64,000 nucleotides of DNA from Tetragenococcus sp. (GTDB lineage Bacteria; Bacillota; Bacilli; Lactobacillales; Enterococcaceae). Positions 9,635 to 53,759 of the stretch are shown piece by piece. Where the stretch lies: positions 1,746 to 65,745 of the forward strand of contig JBFLGC010000008.1 in assembly GCA_041859945.1 (NCBI GenBank). Direction: 5' to 3'. Position 1 is the first letter of the stretch; each line of letters starts with the position of its first letter. The notes below the pieces were generated by a model that was not told the DNA's origin, searched no databases, and saw nothing but the letters and a program-made list of their open reading frames with translations. The translations under genes and the position numbers were made by a program.

Positions 9635-10201
9635 CTAGTTCACATCTTTTGGCAAATAAAGCTGCGGATAAATATCAGCGATGATCAATAAAGCCACGAT
9701 CGCCACAGCCCCAGTTGCAAGTCCGCTAGCCGCATTCATGACTAAGGAATACACCACAGGGCTCAACCCCCATTGGACATAATCGCCCCAAAAGACCCAG
9801 CCAGCCACAAAATGCCAAAAGTAACGGGCCGCAGCCCCTACTAATCCTGATAAGATCAGATACTTCTTTAGCCCTTTTTTATTGCCCTTTTTGACACATT
9901 CGCGAATCTTTGGTGCATAAACACCAGCAAAACCGACAAAAAAATAGGCCAATATATATTCGATCAGTACTTGTGGGATACTCAGATAATAAACATCACC
10001 TAACGGGAAATGCAACAATCCCCAGATAAGGCCTGCTAAAAGACCGGGTTTCACCCCTCTGCGTACCGCAAAAACGGTCAGTGCGATCTGTCCAAGCGAA
10101 ATCGAAAAACTCGACCCGATCTTTAAGGGAATAAACGATAATACCATGGCTAAGGCAGCAAGAACGGTTCCTTCTACCCAAACTCTTGTCTTAGAATGCA
10201 T
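9635..10201 (-). CDS. thiT: ECF transporter S component, ThiT family (thiamine or thiamine-precursor binding), copy 1
   Basis: 188 aa, 5-6 TM helices, begins MHSKTRVWVEGTVLAALAMVLSFIPL. Directly preceded by a TPP riboswitch. Confidence 0.75.
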   Translation of the reverse strand: MHSKTRVWVEGTVLAALAMVLSFIPLKIGSSFSISLGQIALTVFAVRRGVKPGLLAGLIWGLLHFPLGDVYYLSIPQVLIEYILAYFFVGFAGVYAPKIRECVKKGNKKGLKKYLILSGLVGAAARYFWHFVAGWVFWGDYVQWGLSPVVYSLVMNAASGLATGAVAIVALLIIADIYPQLYLPKDVN

Positions 10202-10204
10202 AAA

Positions 10205-10346
10205 AAACTCCTCCTTTAGATTTTTCCATTCACAAAGAAGAAGTCTTCGCTTCTACTCTTCACAATTCCTACGTTCGCATGATCGAAACAGGTACGAAGG
10301 GTTTAGAATCACTTCAATCTCAGCCATTGTAGGCTCCCCTTTGTGA
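10205..10346 (-). promoter_or_regulatory. TPP riboswitch (THI element), copy 1
   Basis: Minus-strand RNA reads cacaaaGGGGAGCC..GGCUGAGA..ACCCUUCGUACCUG..CGUAGGAAuugug. This matches the THI-box core (GGGGUGCC / CUGAGA / ACCCUU.GAACCUGAUC.GG..AUGCCAGCGUAGGGAA). Followed by the RBS AAAGGAGGAG. Confidence 0.85.
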
Positions 10347-10356
10347 ATTTTGATTT

Positions 10357-10929
10357 TTATTTATTTTTTGGTACAAACAAACTTGGTGCCACATTATAAA
10401 GCAAAACGAGGACAATGGCGATATAGATCGCATTGGCCAAGAAAGACGCTCCATTGGCTAAAAAGGAATAAAGATAAGGACTCATTTGTGGTGGCGCATA
10501 GGCTCCCCAGACAAATACTCCTGCCCAAAAATGCCAGAACCAACGGCTAAAAGCCGAAATGACCCCACCTAAAGCAATATAGCACATCGTTTTCGTTTTT
10601 TTAGCTTGAGCAATGCTAGCTTGGATCTTAGGCATCAAGATCCCACCCATACCACCAAAAGCAAAGGCAAAAGGATATTCAAAAATGATCTGTGGCACGC
10701 TGACAAAATTTTTCATGGCCGAGCCTAAGATAATATTGAGTAACCCCCAAATAAAACCTGAAAGCATCGCCGGGGCCCAACTTCTACGATAGCCATACAA
10801 AACCAGCGGCACCAGACCTAATGATAAATCGAAACTGGCATTGCCTGTTTGTAAGGGAATAAAAGATAAAGCCATCGCTAAAGCCGCGATGATCGTCCCT
10901 TCCACCCAAACAACCGTCTTTGAATGCAT
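10357..10929 (-). CDS. ECF transporter S component, ThiT family, copy 2 (paralog)
   Basis: 190 aa. Begins MHSKTVVWVEGTIIAALAMALSFIPL, clearly paralogous to copy 1 but diverged. Also preceded by its own TPP riboswitch. Confidence 0.7.
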   Translation of the reverse strand: MHSKTVVWVEGTIIAALAMALSFIPLQTGNASFDLSLGLVPLVLYGYRRSWAPAMLSGFIWGLLNIILGSAMKNFVSVPQIIFEYPFAFAFGGMGGILMPKIQASIAQAKKTKTMCYIALGGVISAFSRWFWHFWAGVFVWGAYAPPQMSPYLYSFLANGASFLANAIYIAIVLVLLYNVAPSLFVPKNK

Positions 10930-10934
10930 AAAAA

Positions 10935-11085
10935 AGCTCCTCCTTTTAGAATCTTGAAATTCACAAAGAAGAAGTGTTTGCTTCTATTCTTCACAATTCC
11001 TACGTTCGTATGACCGAAACAGGTACGAAGGGTTTAGAGTATCCTCAATCTCAGCCCAAATGGACTCCCCTTTGTGAATAGATCC
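10935..11085 (-). promoter_or_regulatory. TPP riboswitch (THI element), copy 2
   Basis: Minus-strand RNA reads cacaaaGGGGAGUCC..GGGCUGAGA..ACCCUUCGUACCUG..CGUAGGAAuugug, followed by the RBS AAAGGAGGAG. Confidence 0.85.
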
Positions 11086-11212: not shown

Positions 11213-11512
11213 ATGGATAAGATCCCATTAAGTTATGCAAATTTTCTAATTCTTTGGGTATTGCAGACCCCTTCACACGGTTATGAAATCATGAAGAAAA
11301 TCTCAGTCAAAACAAAAAACAGGATCACTGTTGGTCCCGCCACCATGTATAGAAGCCTTGCGTACTTTTTAGACAACGGTTATATAAAATTAGTTTCTGA
11401 AATGGATAATAAGAAAAAGTACCAATTGACAGCGATTGGACAAAAACTTTTAGATGAACAGGTTGATTTTATACAATTACTGGTAGACATCACTAGAGAG
11501 AAAGGAAAGTAG
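11213..11512 (+). CDS. PadR-family transcriptional regulator
   Basis: 99 aa winged-HTH protein (HGYEI..GPATMYRSL..LDNGYI). Confidence 0.8.
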   Translation: MDKIPLSYANFLILWVLQTPSHGYEIMKKISVKTKNRITVGPATMYRSLAYFLDNGYIKLVSEMDNKKKYQLTAIGQKLLDEQVDFIQLLVDITREKGK

Positions 11513-11514
11513 TC

Positions 11515-12276
11515 ATGAAAAGATTCCGGTTGTTTTTTAAAGGCAGTAAGGGTGAAAAAGAGTTTTTACTCGAAAAAAAGCAAAAAGGATATATTTTAAA
11601 AAATATCAACTCTGGTCTGTACTCATTTGAAAAAGTACCACACTTAAGTAGTGCTTCGTTACAAATCGAATTTTGTACGAACGACATTTGTGATTCAGCT
11701 CCAATGATTCAAACCGTTCAAAAAAAATTGCTTTTTTCTAACTACTCTGTTTTATACAGTTATATAGAAAAAAACAAAATCGATCATTCTATTGTTCTGA
11801 CTGAGACCAATGATGTAGAATTTGCGTATTTAAAAAAGTTGAACGCACGCTTATTCTGGCTAAATTTGATAGAAACCATTCTCTTTCTTATCATTTGGAC
11901 TTATCTCGCCCTTTCTGATCATTCTATACATCTCACTGCCTTTTTCTCTATTACAATGTTTATTATTTGGTCGATCAATTTCATTTGGTCTAGAAAAATA
12001 AGCAAACGAAGTGATTCACTCGAAGAAAATGATTATGGAACATCAAATCTTATCGTAGTCATTGAAGGCTTACCCACTCAACCAACTTTGAAAACTTTAA
12101 ATTACTTAGGGATCTGGTCCTTTCGTACCCAAAACAAAAGTAGCTATTATTATCGTCTGACCACAAGTTATTCTCAAGCACAAATAATCAATGAACTTTC
12201 CAATTTCTTAGATATCAATGAAGAAGATATCCAAATCATTTCCGATACCGGATTATTCCCTATCGGTTGGTTTTAA
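11515..12276 (+). CDS. DUF2812-like membrane protein (the usual PadR partner)
   Basis: Translationally coupled to padR (3-nt gap). C-terminal TM helices. The PadR-DUF2812 pairing is a common arrangement. Confidence 0.5.
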   Translation: MKRFRLFFKGSKGEKEFLLEKKQKGYILKNINSGLYSFEKVPHLSSASLQIEFCTNDICDSAPMIQTVQKKLLFSNYSVLYSYIEKNKIDHSIVLTETNDVEFAYLKKLNARLFWLNLIETILFLIIWTYLALSDHSIHLTAFFSITMFIIWSINFIWSRKISKRSDSLEENDYGTSNLIVVIEGLPTQPTLKTLNYLGIWSFRTQNKSSYYYRLTTSYSQAQIINELSNFLDINEEDIQIISDTGLFPIGWF

Positions 12277-12445
12277 TATTTTGATAATAGAATGCAAAAT
12301 TTCAATCTATTTCATAATAAATTTTAGCTTATCCATGAAATATAAAGTAAAATAAAACCCGAACATTTTCACAAAAACATTTCAAAAATTACATCTTAAC
12401 ATTGACATTCTCAAAATTATCTGATAATTTTGAATCGATAAGAAA

Positions 12446-12706
12446 ACGCGATGAAAAAGAAAGTAAACAGCTTGCGAAAATCAAAAGAGACTTCCGATCG
12501 CTGAAAAGGAAGGATTTGTCAGTTGTTGAAAATGGCTTTTGAGCGGATTTTCCGAAAATGAGTAGGAAAATACGGATGCTCCGTTAACAAGCAGCAGTGA
12601 CCGATCCAATCGTTCACTGACAAAGGTAAGATCTGTGAAGATCTTATGATGTAAGGTGGTAACGCAGTCCATGCCCTTCAGCTTTTAGCTCAAGGGCATT
12701 TTTTTA
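12446..12706 (+). promoter_or_regulatory. T-box riboswitch leader, apparent AUG (Met) specifier
   Basis: Promoter with TTGACA near 12402. Stem I opens GCGAUGAAAAAGAAAGUAAAC, close to the Bacillus glyQS leader start GCGAUGAGAAGAAGAGUA. AGAGA and GCUGA distal motifs are present. Specifier loop reads ..GAAAAUGG|CUUUUGAGCGG, with AUG at about 12532-12534 followed by a purine, next to the 3' strand of the basal helix. Stem III is AAGAUCUGUGAAGAUCUU. T-box sequence AAGGUGGUAACGC. Terminator GCCCUUCAGCUUUUAGCUCAAGGGC plus U7. Confidence 0.65.
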
Positions 12707-12731
12707 TTTTATTGAGAGAAAGGAATCAGAA

Positions 12732-13580
12732 ATGAGTGGAAATTTAGTGGTACAAACCGATTTTGGCTTGCAAGACGGCGCCGTCAACGCCATGTACGGC
12801 GTGGCTTATCAAGTCGAGCAAAATTTAACGATCACGGATCTGACCCATGAGATCACGCCCTATGATATTCATGACGCCAGCTACCGCCTATTGCAAAGTG
12901 TGACTTATTGGCCTAAGGGGACCGTTTTCGTTTCGGTCGTCGATCCCGGTGTGGGCTCGACCAGACGTAGTGTCGTGGTCAGCCTTAAAAGTGGGCAATA
13001 TGTCATCACCCCGGACAATGGAACTTTGACCTATTTGAAATCTTATGTTGGTATCAAAGAAGTGCGTCAAATCGACGAGAACACCCAACGCTTAGCCGGT
13101 TCTGCTGAAAGTCATACTTTCCACGGTCGTGATGTCTACATGTATAACGGCGCTCGCTTGGCAAGTCAAAAAGTGCGTTTTGAAGCATTAGGATCAGTGG
13201 TCTCTGTCGACTCCATTGTCACTTTCCCGCTTTTGGAACCGAAACAAACAAATGCCGTTATGCAAGGAACGATCGATATTTTAGACATTCGCTTCGGATC
13301 ATTGTGGACAAATCTTCCTTTGTCATTCATCAAAAATTGGCACGTCGCTTATGGGGATCAGTTACAAGTGGAAATTTATTATCAAAACGTCTTACGTTAT
13401 CGTGAAAGTGTCACTTTTGGCCGCTCGTTTGCGCAGGTTGACCCACAAGAACCTGTGCTTTACATCAATTCTTTACTCAATATTGGTTTAGGTCTCAACC
13501 TTGGTTCCTTTGCCGAAACGTATAAAATCGGGACTGGGATCAATTGGAAAATAAGGATCAAAAAGGAGGATTTATCATGA
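12732..13580 (+). CDS. SAM hydroxide adenosyltransferase (DUF62, SalL/fluorinase-like fold)
   Basis: 282 aa. The N-terminus LVVQTDFGLQDGAVNAMYGV and ..VDPGVGS.. are family signatures. Confidence 0.75.
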   Translation: MSGNLVVQTDFGLQDGAVNAMYGVAYQVEQNLTITDLTHEITPYDIHDASYRLLQSVTYWPKGTVFVSVVDPGVGSTRRSVVVSLKSGQYVITPDNGTLTYLKSYVGIKEVRQIDENTQRLAGSAESHTFHGRDVYMYNGARLASQKVRFEALGSVVSVDSIVTFPLLEPKQTNAVMQGTIDILDIRFGSLWTNLPLSFIKNWHVAYGDQLQVEIYYQNVLRYRESVTFGRSFAQVDPQEPVLYINSLLNIGLGLNLGSFAETYKIGTGINWKIRIKKEDLS

Positions 13581-14131
13581 AAGAATCAAAATTTACCGTT
13601 AAAAGTATCGTTGCAGTAGGAATCGGTGCTGCTGTTTTCTTTATTCTCAAACGTTTCTTAGTCATTCCCACAGGTTTTCCCAATACTGACATCCAAACGG
13701 CTTATCCGTTTTTGGCCTTGTTGGGCGTCGTCTATGGTCCCGTCGTCGCAGGCCTAGCTGGTTTTATTGGTCACTGGTTGGGTGATCTGACTTCCTATGG
13801 CGCTTGGTGGTCGTGGATCATCGCTTCTGGTGTTTTAGGGGTGCTCTTTGGTTTGTTGTCCCGGCGTATCCCAATCGCAGAAGGTATTTTTGGTAAAAAA
13901 GAAATCACCATTTTTACAATCGGGGAAACAATTGCTAATTTAGTTGTTTGGGTGATCCTAGCTCCTATCGGTGATATTTTGATTTATAATGAGCCAGTAG
14001 CAAAAACTTTCACACAAGGCATTATTGCGGGATTGACCAATGCACTGGTAACTGGGATAATTGGAGTGATCCTCCTCAAATCCTACGCCCAAACTAAAAC
14101 AAAAAAGGGCAGCTTAAAGAAGGAATCTTAA
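13577..14131 (+). CDS. ECF transporter substrate-specific (S) component, specificity unknown
   Basis: Start at MKESKF with an AAAAGGAGGA ribosome-binding site. About 184 aa with 5-6 TM helices, sitting directly upstream of the ECF ATPase and T component. Confidence 0.65.
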   Translation: MKESKFTVKSIVAVGIGAAVFFILKRFLVIPTGFPNTDIQTAYPFLALLGVVYGPVVAGLAGFIGHWLGDLTSYGAWWSWIIASGVLGVLFGLLSRRIPIAEGIFGKKEITIFTIGETIANLVVWVILAPIGDILIYNEPVAKTFTQGIIAGLTNALVTGIIGVILLKSYAQTKTKKGSLKKES

Positions 14132-14150
14132 GTAAAGAAATGTGTGAACG

Positions 14151-15860
14151 ATGAAAAAACCTATCATTGAATTTAAAAACTTCTCTTTTCAATACGATGC
14201 TCAAGCTGAGGCTACTTTAAAAAACATCGATTTAACGATCTATGCAGGTGAAAAAGTCTTGATCATAGGGCCCAGTGGTTCCGGCAAAAGCACTTTGGGC
14301 AAATGTCTGAATGGGCTGATCCCGCAGAACGACAAGGGACAATTTACAGGAAGTCTCCAAATTGGCTCCGACACGTTTGGGAAAGCGTCGATTTACGATC
14401 TTTCCTTAGAAGTCGGCACCGTTTTGCAAGACACCGACAGTCAATTCGTGGGTCTGACAGTCGGCGAAGATATGGCCTTTTCTTTGGAAAATGAAGCTGT
14501 GTCCCAAGCTATCATGCGCCAAAAAGTGACGACCTGGGCTGACAAGATCGCTTTAAAAGAACATTTGACCAAAAAGCCCCAAGAATTGTCTGGGGGGCAA
14601 AAACAACGCGTCTCGATGGCTGGTGTTTTGATCGATGAAACGCCGATCCTCTTATTTGACGAGCCTTTAGCGAATCTTGATCCGCAAACGGGTTATGAAG
14701 CCATCGAGATCATCGACCAACTCTATCAAGAACAAAAATTTACCACAATCATTATCGAACATCGCTTAGAAGAAGTCCTCGCGGCACCTGTTGATCGGAT
14801 CCTTTTGATGAATGATGGGCAAATCGTTGCGGATAGCACACCGACTGCCTTATTAAAAAGTGATTTACTTGAAAAATATGGGATTCGCGAACCACTTTAT
14901 GTCGCAGCTTTGAAAAAAGTGGGCCTTTTACTTGACGATTTTACTGATTTGACGGACCTAAAAAAACTGGCTTCGCCTGAAATCAGTCAACATTTACAAG
15001 CTTTTCAAGAGCAACATGTACCCATCCCTGCATTGTCTGACGGCGAAATCTTATTGACTGCTGAAGATTTGACTTTTGCTTACAAAAAGGGCCAAGATAT
15101 TTTAAAAGGTCTCAACTTTTCGATCAAAAAAGGCGAAATGGTCAGTCTTGTGGGTCATAATGGGGCTGGCAAGTCGACATTATCCAATTTGATCACAGGC
15201 TTTCTCGCACCATCTTCGGGACGTTTACTTTGGAACAACCGTGATTTTAGCCACGATTCGATCAAAGAACGCGCTGAAAAAATCGGCTATGTGTTACAAA
15301 ACAGCAATCAAATGTTATCAAAAAATTTCTTGTTCGATGAAGTGGCTCTAGGCTTGATCAATCGCCAAGTACCAGAAGAGCAAATCAGAGAAAAAGTCAA
15401 TGAAACGCTGAAAATCTGTGGCCTGTATGAATTTCGCTCGTGGCCGCTTTCGGCTTTGAGTTATGGCCAGAAACGGCGCGTAGCGATTGCGGCGATCTTA
15501 GTTTTAGATCCAGAATTGATCATTTTAGATGAACCCACAGCTGGTCAAGATCATCGCCACTATAAAGCGATGATGGATTTCATTCAACAATTGAATCAAC
15601 ACGGCTTGACAATTTTGATGATCACGCATGATATGCACTTGATGTTAGAATACACGAAGCGCACGATCGTTTTAAAAGAAGGGCAGATCTTTGCCGAGGG
15701 CACCCCGGCTGAGATCCTTTCTTCGCCTGATATCGTACACTTGGCAAGCCTGCGCCAAACCAGTCTTTATACGTTAGCTAAAATAAACGGTCTGCCTGAT
15801 CCAATTGATTTTGTGGCTTCCTTTATTGATAGTGAAAGGGGCACTACTCATGGAAAGTAA
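14151..15860 (+). CDS. ECF transporter ATPase, fused EcfA-EcfA' (two ABC domains)
   Basis: 569 aa. Two Walker A motifs (GPSGSGKST and GHNGAGKST), two LSGGQ signatures (LSGGQKQR and LSYGQKRR), and a Walker B ILDEPT. Confidence 0.85.
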   Translation: MKKPIIEFKNFSFQYDAQAEATLKNIDLTIYAGEKVLIIGPSGSGKSTLGKCLNGLIPQNDKGQFTGSLQIGSDTFGKASIYDLSLEVGTVLQDTDSQFVGLTVGEDMAFSLENEAVSQAIMRQKVTTWADKIALKEHLTKKPQELSGGQKQRVSMAGVLIDETPILLFDEPLANLDPQTGYEAIEIIDQLYQEQKFTTIIIEHRLEEVLAAPVDRILLMNDGQIVADSTPTALLKSDLLEKYGIREPLYVAALKKVGLLLDDFTDLTDLKKLASPEISQHLQAFQEQHVPIPALSDGEILLTAEDLTFAYKKGQDILKGLNFSIKKGEMVSLVGHNGAGKSTLSNLITGFLAPSSGRLLWNNRDFSHDSIKERAEKIGYVLQNSNQMLSKNFLFDEVALGLINRQVPEEQIREKVNETLKICGLYEFRSWPLSALSYGQKRRVAIAAILVLDPELIILDEPTAGQDHRHYKAMMDFIQQLNQHGLTILMITHDMHLMLEYTKRTIVLKEGQIFAEGTPAEILSSPDIVHLASLRQTSLYTLAKINGLPDPIDFVASFIDSERGTTHGK

Positions 15861-16680
15861 TTTATTCGGCTATCTCGAACGCGACACCGTCATTCATCGG
15901 TTGAGCGGCGTCACAAAGTTGCTTTGTTTCATTTTACTCTCAGTGATCGGCATGATGACCTATGATACGCGTTTTTTATTAGGTATGGCACTTTTCTCAG
16001 GAATCATTTTTTATCTGGCGCAGATCCACTACCGCGATATTGCTTTCGTGATCAAATTCATCATCTTTTTCTCCATCTTAAATCTTGTGGCGGTCTATCT
16101 TTTTTCTCCTGAATATGGGGTGACGATCTACGGCACGCGCCACGTCATTTGGGACGGGATCGGGCGTTTTACCTTGACCCAAGAACAGGTGTTTTATGAA
16201 TTTAATTTGTTCCTCAAGTATTTTGTCACGATCCCACCTGGCTTGATCTTTTTGTTTACGACCAATCCAAGTGAACTTGCTTCAAGCTTGAACCGCATCG
16301 GGATCTCTTATAAGATTTCCTATGCCGTCGCCTTAGCCTTGCGCTACATTCCCGATATTCAAGAAGATTTTCGGACCATCTCCAAAGCCCAACAAGCCCG
16401 TGGCGTCGAATTATCAAAAAAAGCTCCGTTAAAAAAACGCGTCACAGGTAACATCGCCATTGCTATCCCGCTGATTTTTTCGAGTTTAGAACGGATCGAT
16501 AGCATCTCATCAGCGATGGAATTACGGCGCTTTGGTAAAAAGAAAAAAAGGACCTGGCTCATGGCTAGACCTATGAAAAAACAAGATTTCTTGGCCCTAG
16601 CTCTGGTTATTATTTTTGTTGGCATCGGTCTGTCTTTGTTTTCCATAAATGAGGGACGCTTTTACAATCCTTTCATCTAA
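15850..16680 (+). CDS. ecfT: ECF transporter transmembrane (T) component, EcfT/CbiQ family
   Basis: Start at MESNLFGY, overlapping the ATPase stop by 11 nt. Polytopic membrane protein with the conserved ARG motif region (..AQQARGVE..), CbiQ-like. Confidence 0.8.
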   Translation: MESNLFGYLERDTVIHRLSGVTKLLCFILLSVIGMMTYDTRFLLGMALFSGIIFYLAQIHYRDIAFVIKFIIFFSILNLVAVYLFSPEYGVTIYGTRHVIWDGIGRFTLTQEQVFYEFNLFLKYFVTIPPGLIFLFTTNPSELASSLNRIGISYKISYAVALALRYIPDIQEDFRTISKAQQARGVELSKKAPLKKRVTGNIAIAIPLIFSSLERIDSISSAMELRRFGKKKKRTWLMARPMKKQDFLALALVIIFVGIGLSLFSINEGRFYNPFI

Positions 16681-16811: not shown

Positions 16812-16852
16812 CGAAAAAAGCCTCAAGGGAAATTTCTCCTTGAGGCTTCATT
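16812..16852. terminator. bidirectional rho-independent terminator (serves ecfT and prs)
   Basis: GCCTCAAGG gaaatttctc CCTTGAGGC with T/A runs on both sides. Confidence 0.7.
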
Positions 16853-53329: not shown

Positions 53330-53636
53330 TTGATTCCTTCCCTTCATTCCACAAAAGTTTCTGATTCATTATACTAGGAAACAAGCAAAGAAGCAAAAAC
53401 CGTGAATTTGGAGCCTGCAGTTTACGAGCTAAATTCGCTAAAATAAATCTATGGTTGTTGAAATTGGAAAGTAACAACCATAGAGGCTTTCCTCTTGTAA
53501 GCAAAATTAAAGTGATTCAAAATTCATTATTTTATCTCTCTATTCATCTAGCAAACAAGTGTTCTAAGTTGTATAATAAACTCACAAGAAGTTTTGAGGG
53601 CGGTGGCTGTCACTTTTCTCTAAGGAGATGATTTCT

Positions 53637-53672
53637 ATGAGACCATGGAAAAATCTTAAGAATGAAAAATAG
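53637..53672 (+). CDS. 11-aa micro-ORF (MRPWKNLKNEK) with a strong RBS, a possible leader peptide
   Basis: taAGGAGatgatttctATG, ending at TAG. Confidence 0.3.
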   Translation: MRPWKNLKNEK

Positions 53673-53675
53673 CAC

Positions 53676-53759
53676 GTGAGCGTATTTGAAGCTCTGTCAC
53701 TGATGATTGCCTTTGGTGCATTAGTGGCTACGATTTTGTCCAATAAAAAGGACAAATAA
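53676..53759 (+). CDS. 27-aa hydrophobic peptide (MSVFEALSLMIAFGALVATILSNKKDK), holin-like / type I toxin-like
   Basis: Starts at GTG 3 nt after the micro-ORF stop. Single predicted TM helix with a basic C-terminal tail. The promoter-like TTGTATAAT near 53570 and a terminator at 53840-53873 delimit a transcript of about 300 nt. Confidence 0.35.
   Translation: MSVFEALSLMIAFGALVATILSNKKDK

Follow-up and report, generated by a model that had tools for sequence, protein, structure and literature searches.

We analysed a 64,000-nucleotide stretch of a Tetragenococcus sp. contig (JBFLGC010000008.1; the whole stretch is called the window below), in which a T-box leader RNA precedes four genes on the forward strand. 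The first gene encodes a DUF62 protein of the S-adenosylmethionine (SAM) hydroxide adenosyltransferase family, and the other three encode the S component, the fused A-A' ATPase and the T component of an energy-coupling factor (ECF) transporter (Table 1). The leader carries AUG as its specifier codon. We read the locus as a methionine-responsive operon that may import a methionine-yielding compound and release methionine from it by means of the DUF62 enzyme.

Table 1. Positions of the leader elements, operon genes and flanking signals in the window
Feature	Position	Strand	Basis or remark
Promoter, -35 element TTGACA	12402-12407	+	Sequence reading
Promoter, extended -10 element (17-nt spacer)	TG 12422-12423; TAATTT 12425-12430	+	Sequence reading
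T-box leader (Stem I, Stem II, Stem IIA/B, linker hairpin, Stem III, antiterminator)	12442-12681	+	RF00230
Stem I	12448-12544	+	cmscan alignment
GA/K-turn base of Stem I, GCGAUGA...UGAGC	within 12448-12544	+	cmscan alignment
AG bulge of Stem I, AGAGA	12486-12490	+	cmscan alignment and sequence
Distal loop of Stem I, GCUGAAAA	12500-12507	+	cmscan alignment and sequence
Specifier loop, 3' side, GAAAAUGG	12528-12535	+	cmscan alignment and sequence
Specifier codon AUG (Met)	12532-12534	+	Followed by purine G12535 and then helix strand CUUU
Basal helix, CUUU paired with AAAG	12536-12539 with 12456-12459	+	cmscan alignment and sequence
Stem II with AGUA turn		+	cmscan alignment
Stem IIA/B, CGGAUGCUCCG		+	cmscan alignment
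Linker hairpin between Stem IIA/B and Stem III, CAGUGACCGAUCCAAUCGUUCACUG	~12595-12619	+	Insertion in the Rfam model
Stem III hairpin	12627-12646	+	cmscan alignment
T-box sequence, AAGGUGGUAACGC	12653-12665	+	cmscan alignment
Bulge UGGU in the T-box sequence	12657-12660	+	Expected partner: tRNA 3' end ACCA (discriminator A73)
Intrinsic terminator, hairpin and U-run (U7)	12671-12699; U-run to 12705	+	Folding
Ribosome-binding site of the DUF62 gene, AAGGA	12720-12724	+	
DUF62 / SAM hydroxide adenosyltransferase (SAM hydrolase, adenosine-forming), 282 aa	12732-13580	+	PF01887, PF20257
ECF S component, UPF0397/PF07155 (MtsA/MtsT type), 184 aa	13577-14131	+	PF07155, NF010182
Fused A-A' ATPase, 569 aa; two ABC_tran domains and a DUF3744 linker	14151-15860	+	PF00005 (twice), PF12558
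ECF T component (CbiQ family), 276 aa	15850-16680	+	PF02361, 105.1 bits
Terminator-like hairpin, 12 pairs	16818-16848	+	Consensus scan; between the T gene and convergent prs

Leader anatomy, promoter and operon structure

The leader matched the Rfam T-box model RF00230 with a cmscan score of 101.9 bits (gathering threshold 93, E value 2.4e-21). The alignment spanned the whole model, from position 1 to position 219, as in a full-length T-box, and the Rfam scan found no second T-box in the window. The initial annotation, which had been made from the letters of the sequence, had placed a T-box here, and all of the elements it listed were recovered. For comparison, the leader was aligned with 19 T-box leaders from orthologous operons (alignment A2, 20 leaders with the window). 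RNAalifold predicted 44 pairs in this alignment, and compensatory double changes were seen in 34 of them. The covariation included the basal helix (columns 15-18/100-103), the upper Stem I helix and the terminator stem. In the basal helix that frames the codon, A-U and G-C pairs were swapped at columns 15/103 and 17/101. The AAGGTGG portion of the T-box sequence was unchanged in all 20 leaders. The arms of the linker hairpin, CAGU...(U)ACUG, also occurred in the Enterococcus and Bacillaceae leaders of the alignment.

The terminator and the antiterminator differed greatly in strength. The terminator folded with -16.1 kcal/mol (z = -5.4), and none of 200 shuffled sequences was equally stable, while the antiterminator segment (AAGG...CCUU) by itself reached only -3.4 kcal/mol. 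The GCCCUU segment that serves as the 5' arm of the terminator is common to both structures, which makes them mutually exclusive. A weak antiterminator facing a strong terminator is the asymmetry expected if the T-box needs a tRNA to hold the antiterminator. The minimum free energy fold of the whole leader paired its 5' end with the terminator region and was a poor model of the switch. In sequence and predicted fold, the region from 12442 to 12705 is a canonical transcription-attenuating T-box leader, for which read-through on uncharged tRNA is predicted.

The specifier loop of the window, taken alone, leaves room for three frames in GAAAAUGG, namely AAU, AUG and UGG, and thus for sensing of tRNA-Asn or tRNA-Trp through a frame that overlaps the methionine codon. 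The orthologous leaders kept only one of them. ATG was invariant in alignment A2 (columns A91, T92 and G93), and three additional leaders also carried it, which brings the count to 23 of 23 with the window included. These leaders came from Enterococcus, Desemzia, Atopococcus, Carnobacterium and nine Bacillaceae genera or groups. The neighbours of the codon varied across the alignment (GAAAAUGGC, GAACAUGAC, GAAGGAUGGC and GGAAGAUGGU), and the overlapping frames were not kept: AAU changed to CAU or GAU, and UGG to UGA, with CAU and UGA seen in L001 and L004. In all leaders, a G or A stood between AUG and the 3' strand of the basal helix. This position rule (codon, purine, helix) picks AUG and neither AAU nor UGG.

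Other T-boxes in the same loci served as an internal control for the methionine assignment. Another AUG-type T-box in the Atopococcus locus precedes a gene for a Cys/Met pyridoxal phosphate (PLP) enzyme, and another one in Tetragenococcus precedes genes for a Cys/Met PLP enzyme and homoserine O-acyltransferase (HTS, metA), which are canonical methionine genes. We therefore hold the methionine specificity of the T-box, and with it the AUG followed by a purine that had first been read from the window, to be almost certain. Sensing of tRNA-Asn or tRNA-Trp is very improbable. The discriminator base of tRNA-Met is A73, and the bulge read UGGU in the window and altogether in 20 of the 23 leaders, UGGC in L023 and L024, and UGGA in L047. 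There was no tRNA gene in the 64-kb window with which the bulge base could be compared.

A second T-box lay near the operon in four of the loci (L001, 1046-1314; L002, 526-797; L004, 1038-1309; L022, 8613-8882), and at L001 it precedes a gene for an oligopeptide-binding protein (SBP_bac_5). It reads GAAGAUGA(A/G)CUC, with two purines between AUG and the helix, where a rule of codon plus one purine would read UGA. Judged from its sequence, this element probably belongs to the Met T-boxes and has one additional closing pair (A-G).

The initial annotation had also named a TTGACA promoter near 12402 and an intrinsic terminator with seven U residues, and both were found. The arrangement TTGACA-N14-TG-N-TA(A/T)TTT was kept in ten of ten aligned Enterococcus-type leaders (the window and nine Enterococcus loci). 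A consensus promoter and terminator scan did not list a promoter at 12402-12430, which we attribute to the extended type of the -10 element. We accepted these elements as the likely operon promoter because the arrangement was conserved in the ten leaders. The same scan passed over the leader terminator, the stem of which contains a C-C mismatch.

The DUF62 protein scored well above the gathering thresholds of its two Pfam families, with 163.7 bits for PF01887 (threshold 26.3) and 65.7 bits for PF20257 (threshold 25.5). D71, R78 and H131 were invariant in 14 operon-linked homologues. These residues sit in the motifs VVDPGVGxxR and TFHGRD, which aligned with VVDxGVGxxR and FHGRD of 2zbu. We take them to be the equivalents of D68, R75 and H127 in PH0463, an Asp-Arg-His set that reportedly marks the hydrolase subgroup and is said to have been proposed to activate water. 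The earlier view of this protein as a SAM-cleaving enzyme agrees with its membership in the hydrolase-type family. It needs one correction, which changes the likely physiology. DUF62 enzymes have been described as stereoselective (R)-SAM hydrolases (bioRxiv 10.1101/2025.08.29.672840), which salvage or repair the inactive (R)-sulfonium epimer of SAM by converting it to methionine and adenosine (bioRxiv 10.1101/2025.08.29.672840; PMC12120602).

A DUF62-homologous chain in the PDB (7ccg) is labelled "RNA polymerase subunit delta". The gene adjoining mtsA in Streptococcus suis (SSUSC84_0347; PMC9423846) bears the same label, which suggests that a wrong name has spread among DUF62 proteins.

The start of the S gene overlaps the DUF62 stop codon by 4 nt (ATGA), and the last 11 nt of the A-A' gene are shared with the start of the T gene. 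These overlaps indicate that the four genes are translationally coupled as a single unit. Their coordinates, including the T start, were the same in independent gene calls on three Logan contigs. The S component scored 160.4 bits for PF07155, and its closest named relatives were from Enterococcus species (80-83% identity). The A-A' protein scored 420.3 bits for TIGR04520 (cut-off 315) and 370.1 bits for TIGR04521 (cut-off 330). By these matches, and as first described, S, A, A' and T lie contiguously in one operon with DUF62, and the transporter is of the dedicated-module type (group I).

We are highly confident that this operon belongs to the family known as the "methionine-regulated ECF transporter" (MtsABC/MtsTUV), with DUF62 as its partner. 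MtsTUV is said to have been predicted on bioinformatic grounds, with a "methionine precursor" as the guessed substrate, and we take the SEED name MtsABC to denote the same system. The SEED phrase was found in two further genome papers. In SEED, MtsA is the substrate-specific component, MtsB the duplicated ATPase and MtsC the transmembrane component, and these names have been used for S. suis (PMC9423846).

Orthologous loci, their leaders and the surroundings of the operon

An alignment of 19 S components (A1) served as the query with which 80 orthologous loci, each from a different species, were collected from GTDB genomes, and the Rfam scan covered 79 of these loci. The order of S, fused A-A' and T was syntenic in 79 of the 80 loci. 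DUF62 lay directly upstream of S in 40 loci, from Enterococcaceae, Carnobacteriaceae, Staphylococcus, Bacillaceae, Anaerococcus, Clostridium and metagenome-assembled genomes of the Oscillospiraceae type. When the open reading frames within the 80 operons and immediately on either side of them were clustered, every other family was confined to one or two loci, which leaves DUF62 as the only recurrent extra gene of the operon. The initial annotation had mentioned a predicted methionine-regulated ECF module and had considered its coupling to DUF62 under a T-box uncharacterised. The family is indeed annotated (PMC9423846), but the layout is not rare. The DUF62-ECF arrangement is widespread and already visible in existing annotation; in S. 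aureus, KQ76_RS13825 and KQ76_RS13830 are adjacent and place DUF62 next to an ECF gene (PMC13210130).

In 21 loci, the operon was immediately preceded by a T-box that reached the gathering threshold. These belonged to nine Enterococcus species, Desemzia, Atopococcus, Carnobacterium, Bacillus pumilus-group species, Priestia, Compostibacillus, Paucisalibacillus, Psychrobacillus, Heyndrickxia and Cytobacillus. The number rose to 22 with Exiguobacterium, in which an nhmmer profile detected a weaker T-box. In eight loci from Clostridia and Anaerococcus, a SAM-I riboswitch replaced the T-box directly before S. The nhmmer profiles, which were made from the T-box and SAM matches, added only L038, L078, L079, L048 and L054. 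Seven loci that had no gathering-level match were searched in the E-value mode of Rfam, without any match in front of the operon.

The two kinds of sensor were distributed very differently with respect to DUF62. Among the operons with a Met T-box leader, 21 contained DUF62 and one (Enterococcus lactis) did not. None of the eight operons with a SAM-I riboswitch contained it (Fisher p = 1.5e-6 for the 30 loci). Both states occurred in Anaerococcus, with DUF62 and no riboswitch at L020 and L076, and a riboswitch and no DUF62 at L031 and L035. Bacillaceae control their methionine genes mostly by S-boxes and use few Met T-boxes (PMC3771891). The operon studied here carried a Met T-box in eleven Bacillaceae-type species, ten at the gathering level and the sub-threshold case of Exiguobacterium.

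The S component was also compared across the 80 loci. Its AlphaFold2 model (pLDDT 92.4) had the six-helix fold of S components. Eleven residues (N36, T37, H66, D70, W77, W80, D133, Y137, E139, Q147 and Y170) were invariant in 80 of 80 proteins, independent of the type of regulator or the DUF62 status. These putative ligand-site residues, placed only by secondary-structure element of the model, fall on loop 1 and at the junctions between TM3 and TM4 and between TM5 and TM6. Since the putative ligand site is invariant in all of the proteins, they probably share one substrate. With its acidic and aromatic residues, the set would, at the level of the model, suit a cationic ligand.

Some DUF62 operons that lack an RNA leader had repeated ACGAAT or TTCGATAAT-like boxes just upstream of the TTGACA -35 element. 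The boxes were seen at L013 (3400-3630), L014, L015, L010, L026, L027, L053 and L037, which represent relatives of the Enterococcus faecalis clade, Vagococcus, Pilibacter and a Clostridium. They may be bound by a protein regulator that takes the place of the T-box.

Directly 5' of the T-box promoter in the window lie a gene for a PadR-family regulator (11213-11512, +) and a gene for a 253-residue membrane-like protein that matches DUF2812 weakly (11515-12276, +). Both accompany the operon on the Logan contigs, and no link between them and the operon was found. Further upstream, tandem ThiT (Thia_YuaJ) paralogues are encoded on the opposite strand (9635-10201 and 10357-10929, -), each with a thiamine pyrophosphate riboswitch (10249-10350, 65.5 bits; 10980-11081, 67.0 bits). 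Solitary ThiT S components imply that a shared ECF module must exist elsewhere in the genome, separate from the Mts module. Elsewhere in the window, a match to rli28, a Listeria small RNA family (RF01492), was found at 53562-53746 (+) with 61.6 bits (gathering threshold 45, E value 3.9e-05). It stands in an otherwise Enterococcaceae-like genome and contains several non-canonical pairs, and may be either borderline or only distantly related to the family.

Proposed mechanism and competing explanations

On the established T-box mechanism, the operon would respond to the charging of tRNA-Met. When methionine is plentiful, charged tRNA-Met could not stabilize the weak antiterminator, and the terminator of about -16 kcal/mol would halt transcription at about position 12705. 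When methionine is scarce, the CAU anticodon of uncharged tRNA-Met would pair with the AUG at 12532-12534, and its ACCA end would pair with the UGGU bulge at 12657-12660. This would hold the antiterminator and allow the operon to be transcribed. By analogy with T-boxes of known function, induction by methionine starvation is thus very likely.

The transported substrate is a harder question. The importer is co-translated with an enzyme that frees methionine from an adenosyl sulfonium compound, which suggests that this enzyme acts on what the transporter brings in. The dedicated ECF module would then import an exogenous methionine-yielding compound. The favoured candidate is SAM, the inactive (R)-sulfonium epimer included, from which DUF62 would release L-methionine and adenosine by hydrolysis in the cytoplasm. 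An (R)-selective hydrolase could in this way draw methionine from the useless epimer and spare the active SAM of the cell. We consider the combination of a Met T-box, import of a methionine-yielding compound and cleavage by DUF62 to be the best overall explanation and, on balance, a probable one. The narrower proposal that the transported compound is SAM, which draws on gene content and the comparative pattern, is tentative.

The distribution of the sensors makes sense if the sensor reads the end product of the operon. Imported SAM would shut a SAM riboswitch before it could be converted, so an operon that makes methionine from SAM needs a methionine sensor, whereas an operon that merely supplies SAM can use a SAM sensor. 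A SAM riboswitch would accordingly be expected where imported SAM serves directly as a cofactor and DUF62 is absent, and a tRNA-Met T-box where co-translated DUF62 turns imported SAM into methionine and adenosine. The same reasoning fits the use of a Met T-box on this operon in Bacillaceae. Methionine salvage, as first proposed for this locus, is favoured by these comparative data because DUF62 is the sole recurrent partner of the transporter, SAM riboswitches occur elsewhere, and AUG T-boxes govern metA and PLP enzyme genes.

Taken further, Mts might be the first SAM importer of the ECF type and the first of any type in free-living Firmicutes, with a sensor matched to the end product. The imported SAM may be chiefly the (R)-epimer that accumulates outside cells, and DUF62 would act as a catabolic salvage enzyme and not only in housekeeping repair. 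This extended proposal is speculative and rather unlikely to hold. A literature search, the reach of which did not extend to the original Mts and DUF62 papers, found no ECF-type SAM importer.

Several observations weigh against the salvage explanation. Characterized DUF62 enzymes are reportedly slow and selective for (R)-SAM, so the one here could serve in repair or recycling and be co-regulated with the transporter without sharing its function. The protein in the window fell below the cut-offs of the (R)-SAM hydrolase equivalog models NF058624 (129.4 against 350 bits) and NF053629 (109.2 against 470 bits), and stereoselectivity is therefore not transferable to it by score. No RNA element was found at 50 of the 80 loci (19 with DUF62 and 31 without). 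The association of DUF62 with the type of sensor is not phylogenetically independent, as it involves about four T-box clades and three S-box clades. The leaders with UGGC or UGGA in the bulge keep AUG, which means either that the mismatch is tolerated or that the local tRNA-Met differs. The S. aureus Met T-box, the only one tested biochemically, prefers initiator tRNA-fMet, and mutation of its AUG did not abolish tRNA binding (PMC3771891).

The strongest alternative treats the operon as two independent methionine-sparing functions under common regulation. The ECF module would import another methionine source, such as methionine, S-methylmethionine, homocysteine, S-adenosylhomocysteine or methylthioadenosine. 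DUF62 would recover methionine from the spontaneously epimerized (R)-SAM of the cell itself when methionine is scarce. This would agree with the characterized DUF62 proteins, which are (R)-SAM-selective repair enzymes and have no link to a transporter in archaea. Half of the S-AA'-T operons lack DUF62, which implies that the transporter works without it, and S-boxes and Met T-boxes mark the methionine regulon generally and not one substrate (PMC3771891). However, DUF62 lies in the transporter operon, often overlapping or nearly adjacent, in 40 of 80 species from several families. Two independent functions also would not predict the complete lack of DUF62 from the eight SAM-riboswitch operons. 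We regard this alternative as possible but rather unlikely, and as about equally probable as SAM import. The probability left by SAM import and by this alternative goes to other substrates that DUF62 could process.

The remaining alternatives can be set aside more easily. The S component bears names that point to riboflavin, since PF07155 is called "ECF-ribofla_trS" and the riboflavin "equivalog" model NF010182 gave 228.8 bits against a cut-off of 99. A riboflavin importer was rejected as a candidate because the regulation contradicts it: there was no FMN riboswitch in the window or at any of the 79 scanned loci, and 30 loci carried Met T-box or SAM leaders. No solved structure, RibU included, matched the S component by sequence (PDB, E <= 1), and in Foldseek comparisons its model was no nearer to RibU (TM score 0.58-0.62) than to FolT and ThiT (0.70-0.72). 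The family PF07155/COG4720 also includes the vitamin B6 transporters PdxU and PdxU2/HmpT (PMC9997740), so that the family name does not fix the substrate. Riboflavin import is therefore highly implausible, and the riboflavin product name is probably wrong for this subfamily of S components.

A SalL/FlA-type halogenase, which would make 5'-halo-5'-deoxyadenosine as part of a natural-product pathway, shares the protein family of DUF62 and is no less implausible, since the best PDB matches were of the hydrolase type (2zbu, PH0463 (2wr8/1wu8), MJ1651 and the (R)-SAM hydrolase 22uy) with the chlorinase SalL (2q6i) and the fluorinases (1rqp) ranking after them, the presumed hydrolase Asp-Arg-His set was invariant in the homologues, no biosynthetic genes were found near the operon, and the fluorinase model TIGR04507 gave 84.6 bits, far under its cut-off of 400, so that halogenase function is not transferable by score.

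As annotation, the result is routine and places an Enterococcaceae-like genome in a known regulon. The T-box, the transporter and the enzyme each belong to known families, and the value of the locus lies in the substrate question and in the testable pattern of sensor and enzyme. The DUF62 coupling and the sensor split point to SAM and its epimer as a concrete substrate candidate. If this were true, DUF62 enzymes would gain a nutritional role, and gut and food Firmicutes would scavenge SAM.

Relation to known systems

The operon in the window shows no structural difference from the MtsABC/MtsTUV systems, which have the same S family (UPF0397/PF07155/PRK13661), a fused A-A' and a T component, and are controlled by a Met T-box or an S-box. 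The S. aureus metICFE-mdh Met T-box (PMC3771891) has the same AUG specifier, a UGGN bulge, a terminator/antiterminator switch and a response to methionine. It controls biosynthesis genes, whereas the T-box in the window precedes an importer and a hydrolase. The DUF62-ECF operon of Staphylococcus itself (L017), unlike that in the window, has no T-box.

The DUF62 protein resembles Pyrococcus PH0463, Salinispora StDUF62 and the Sulfolobus and Haloferax SAMH enzymes in its two-domain SAM_HAT fold and its Asp, Arg and His residues. These enzymes convert SAM and water to adenosine and L-methionine, and the same reaction is expected of the window protein from its sequence. They stand alone or in unrelated operons and are seen as (R)-SAM repair enzymes. 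In contrast, translation of the window protein is coupled to that of an importer, and its gene stands under a predicted control by amino-acid starvation.

Transporters of SAM are represented by CTL843 of Chlamydia and RP076 of Rickettsia (PMC3104491), which would have their substrate in common with the Mts module only if the SAM-import reading is right. These are unrelated carriers of the drug/metabolite transporter type from obligate intracellular bacteria and are not ECF or ABC transporters. A similar logic of regulation is seen in the queK-qrtT-queL operon of Clostridioides difficile (PMC11477304), where the leader senses the end product, and an ECF S component and hydrolytic enzymes convert an imported precursor. 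That operon differs in having a PreQ1 riboswitch, another S family and a shared ECF module, and its likeness to the operon described here is one of analogy only.

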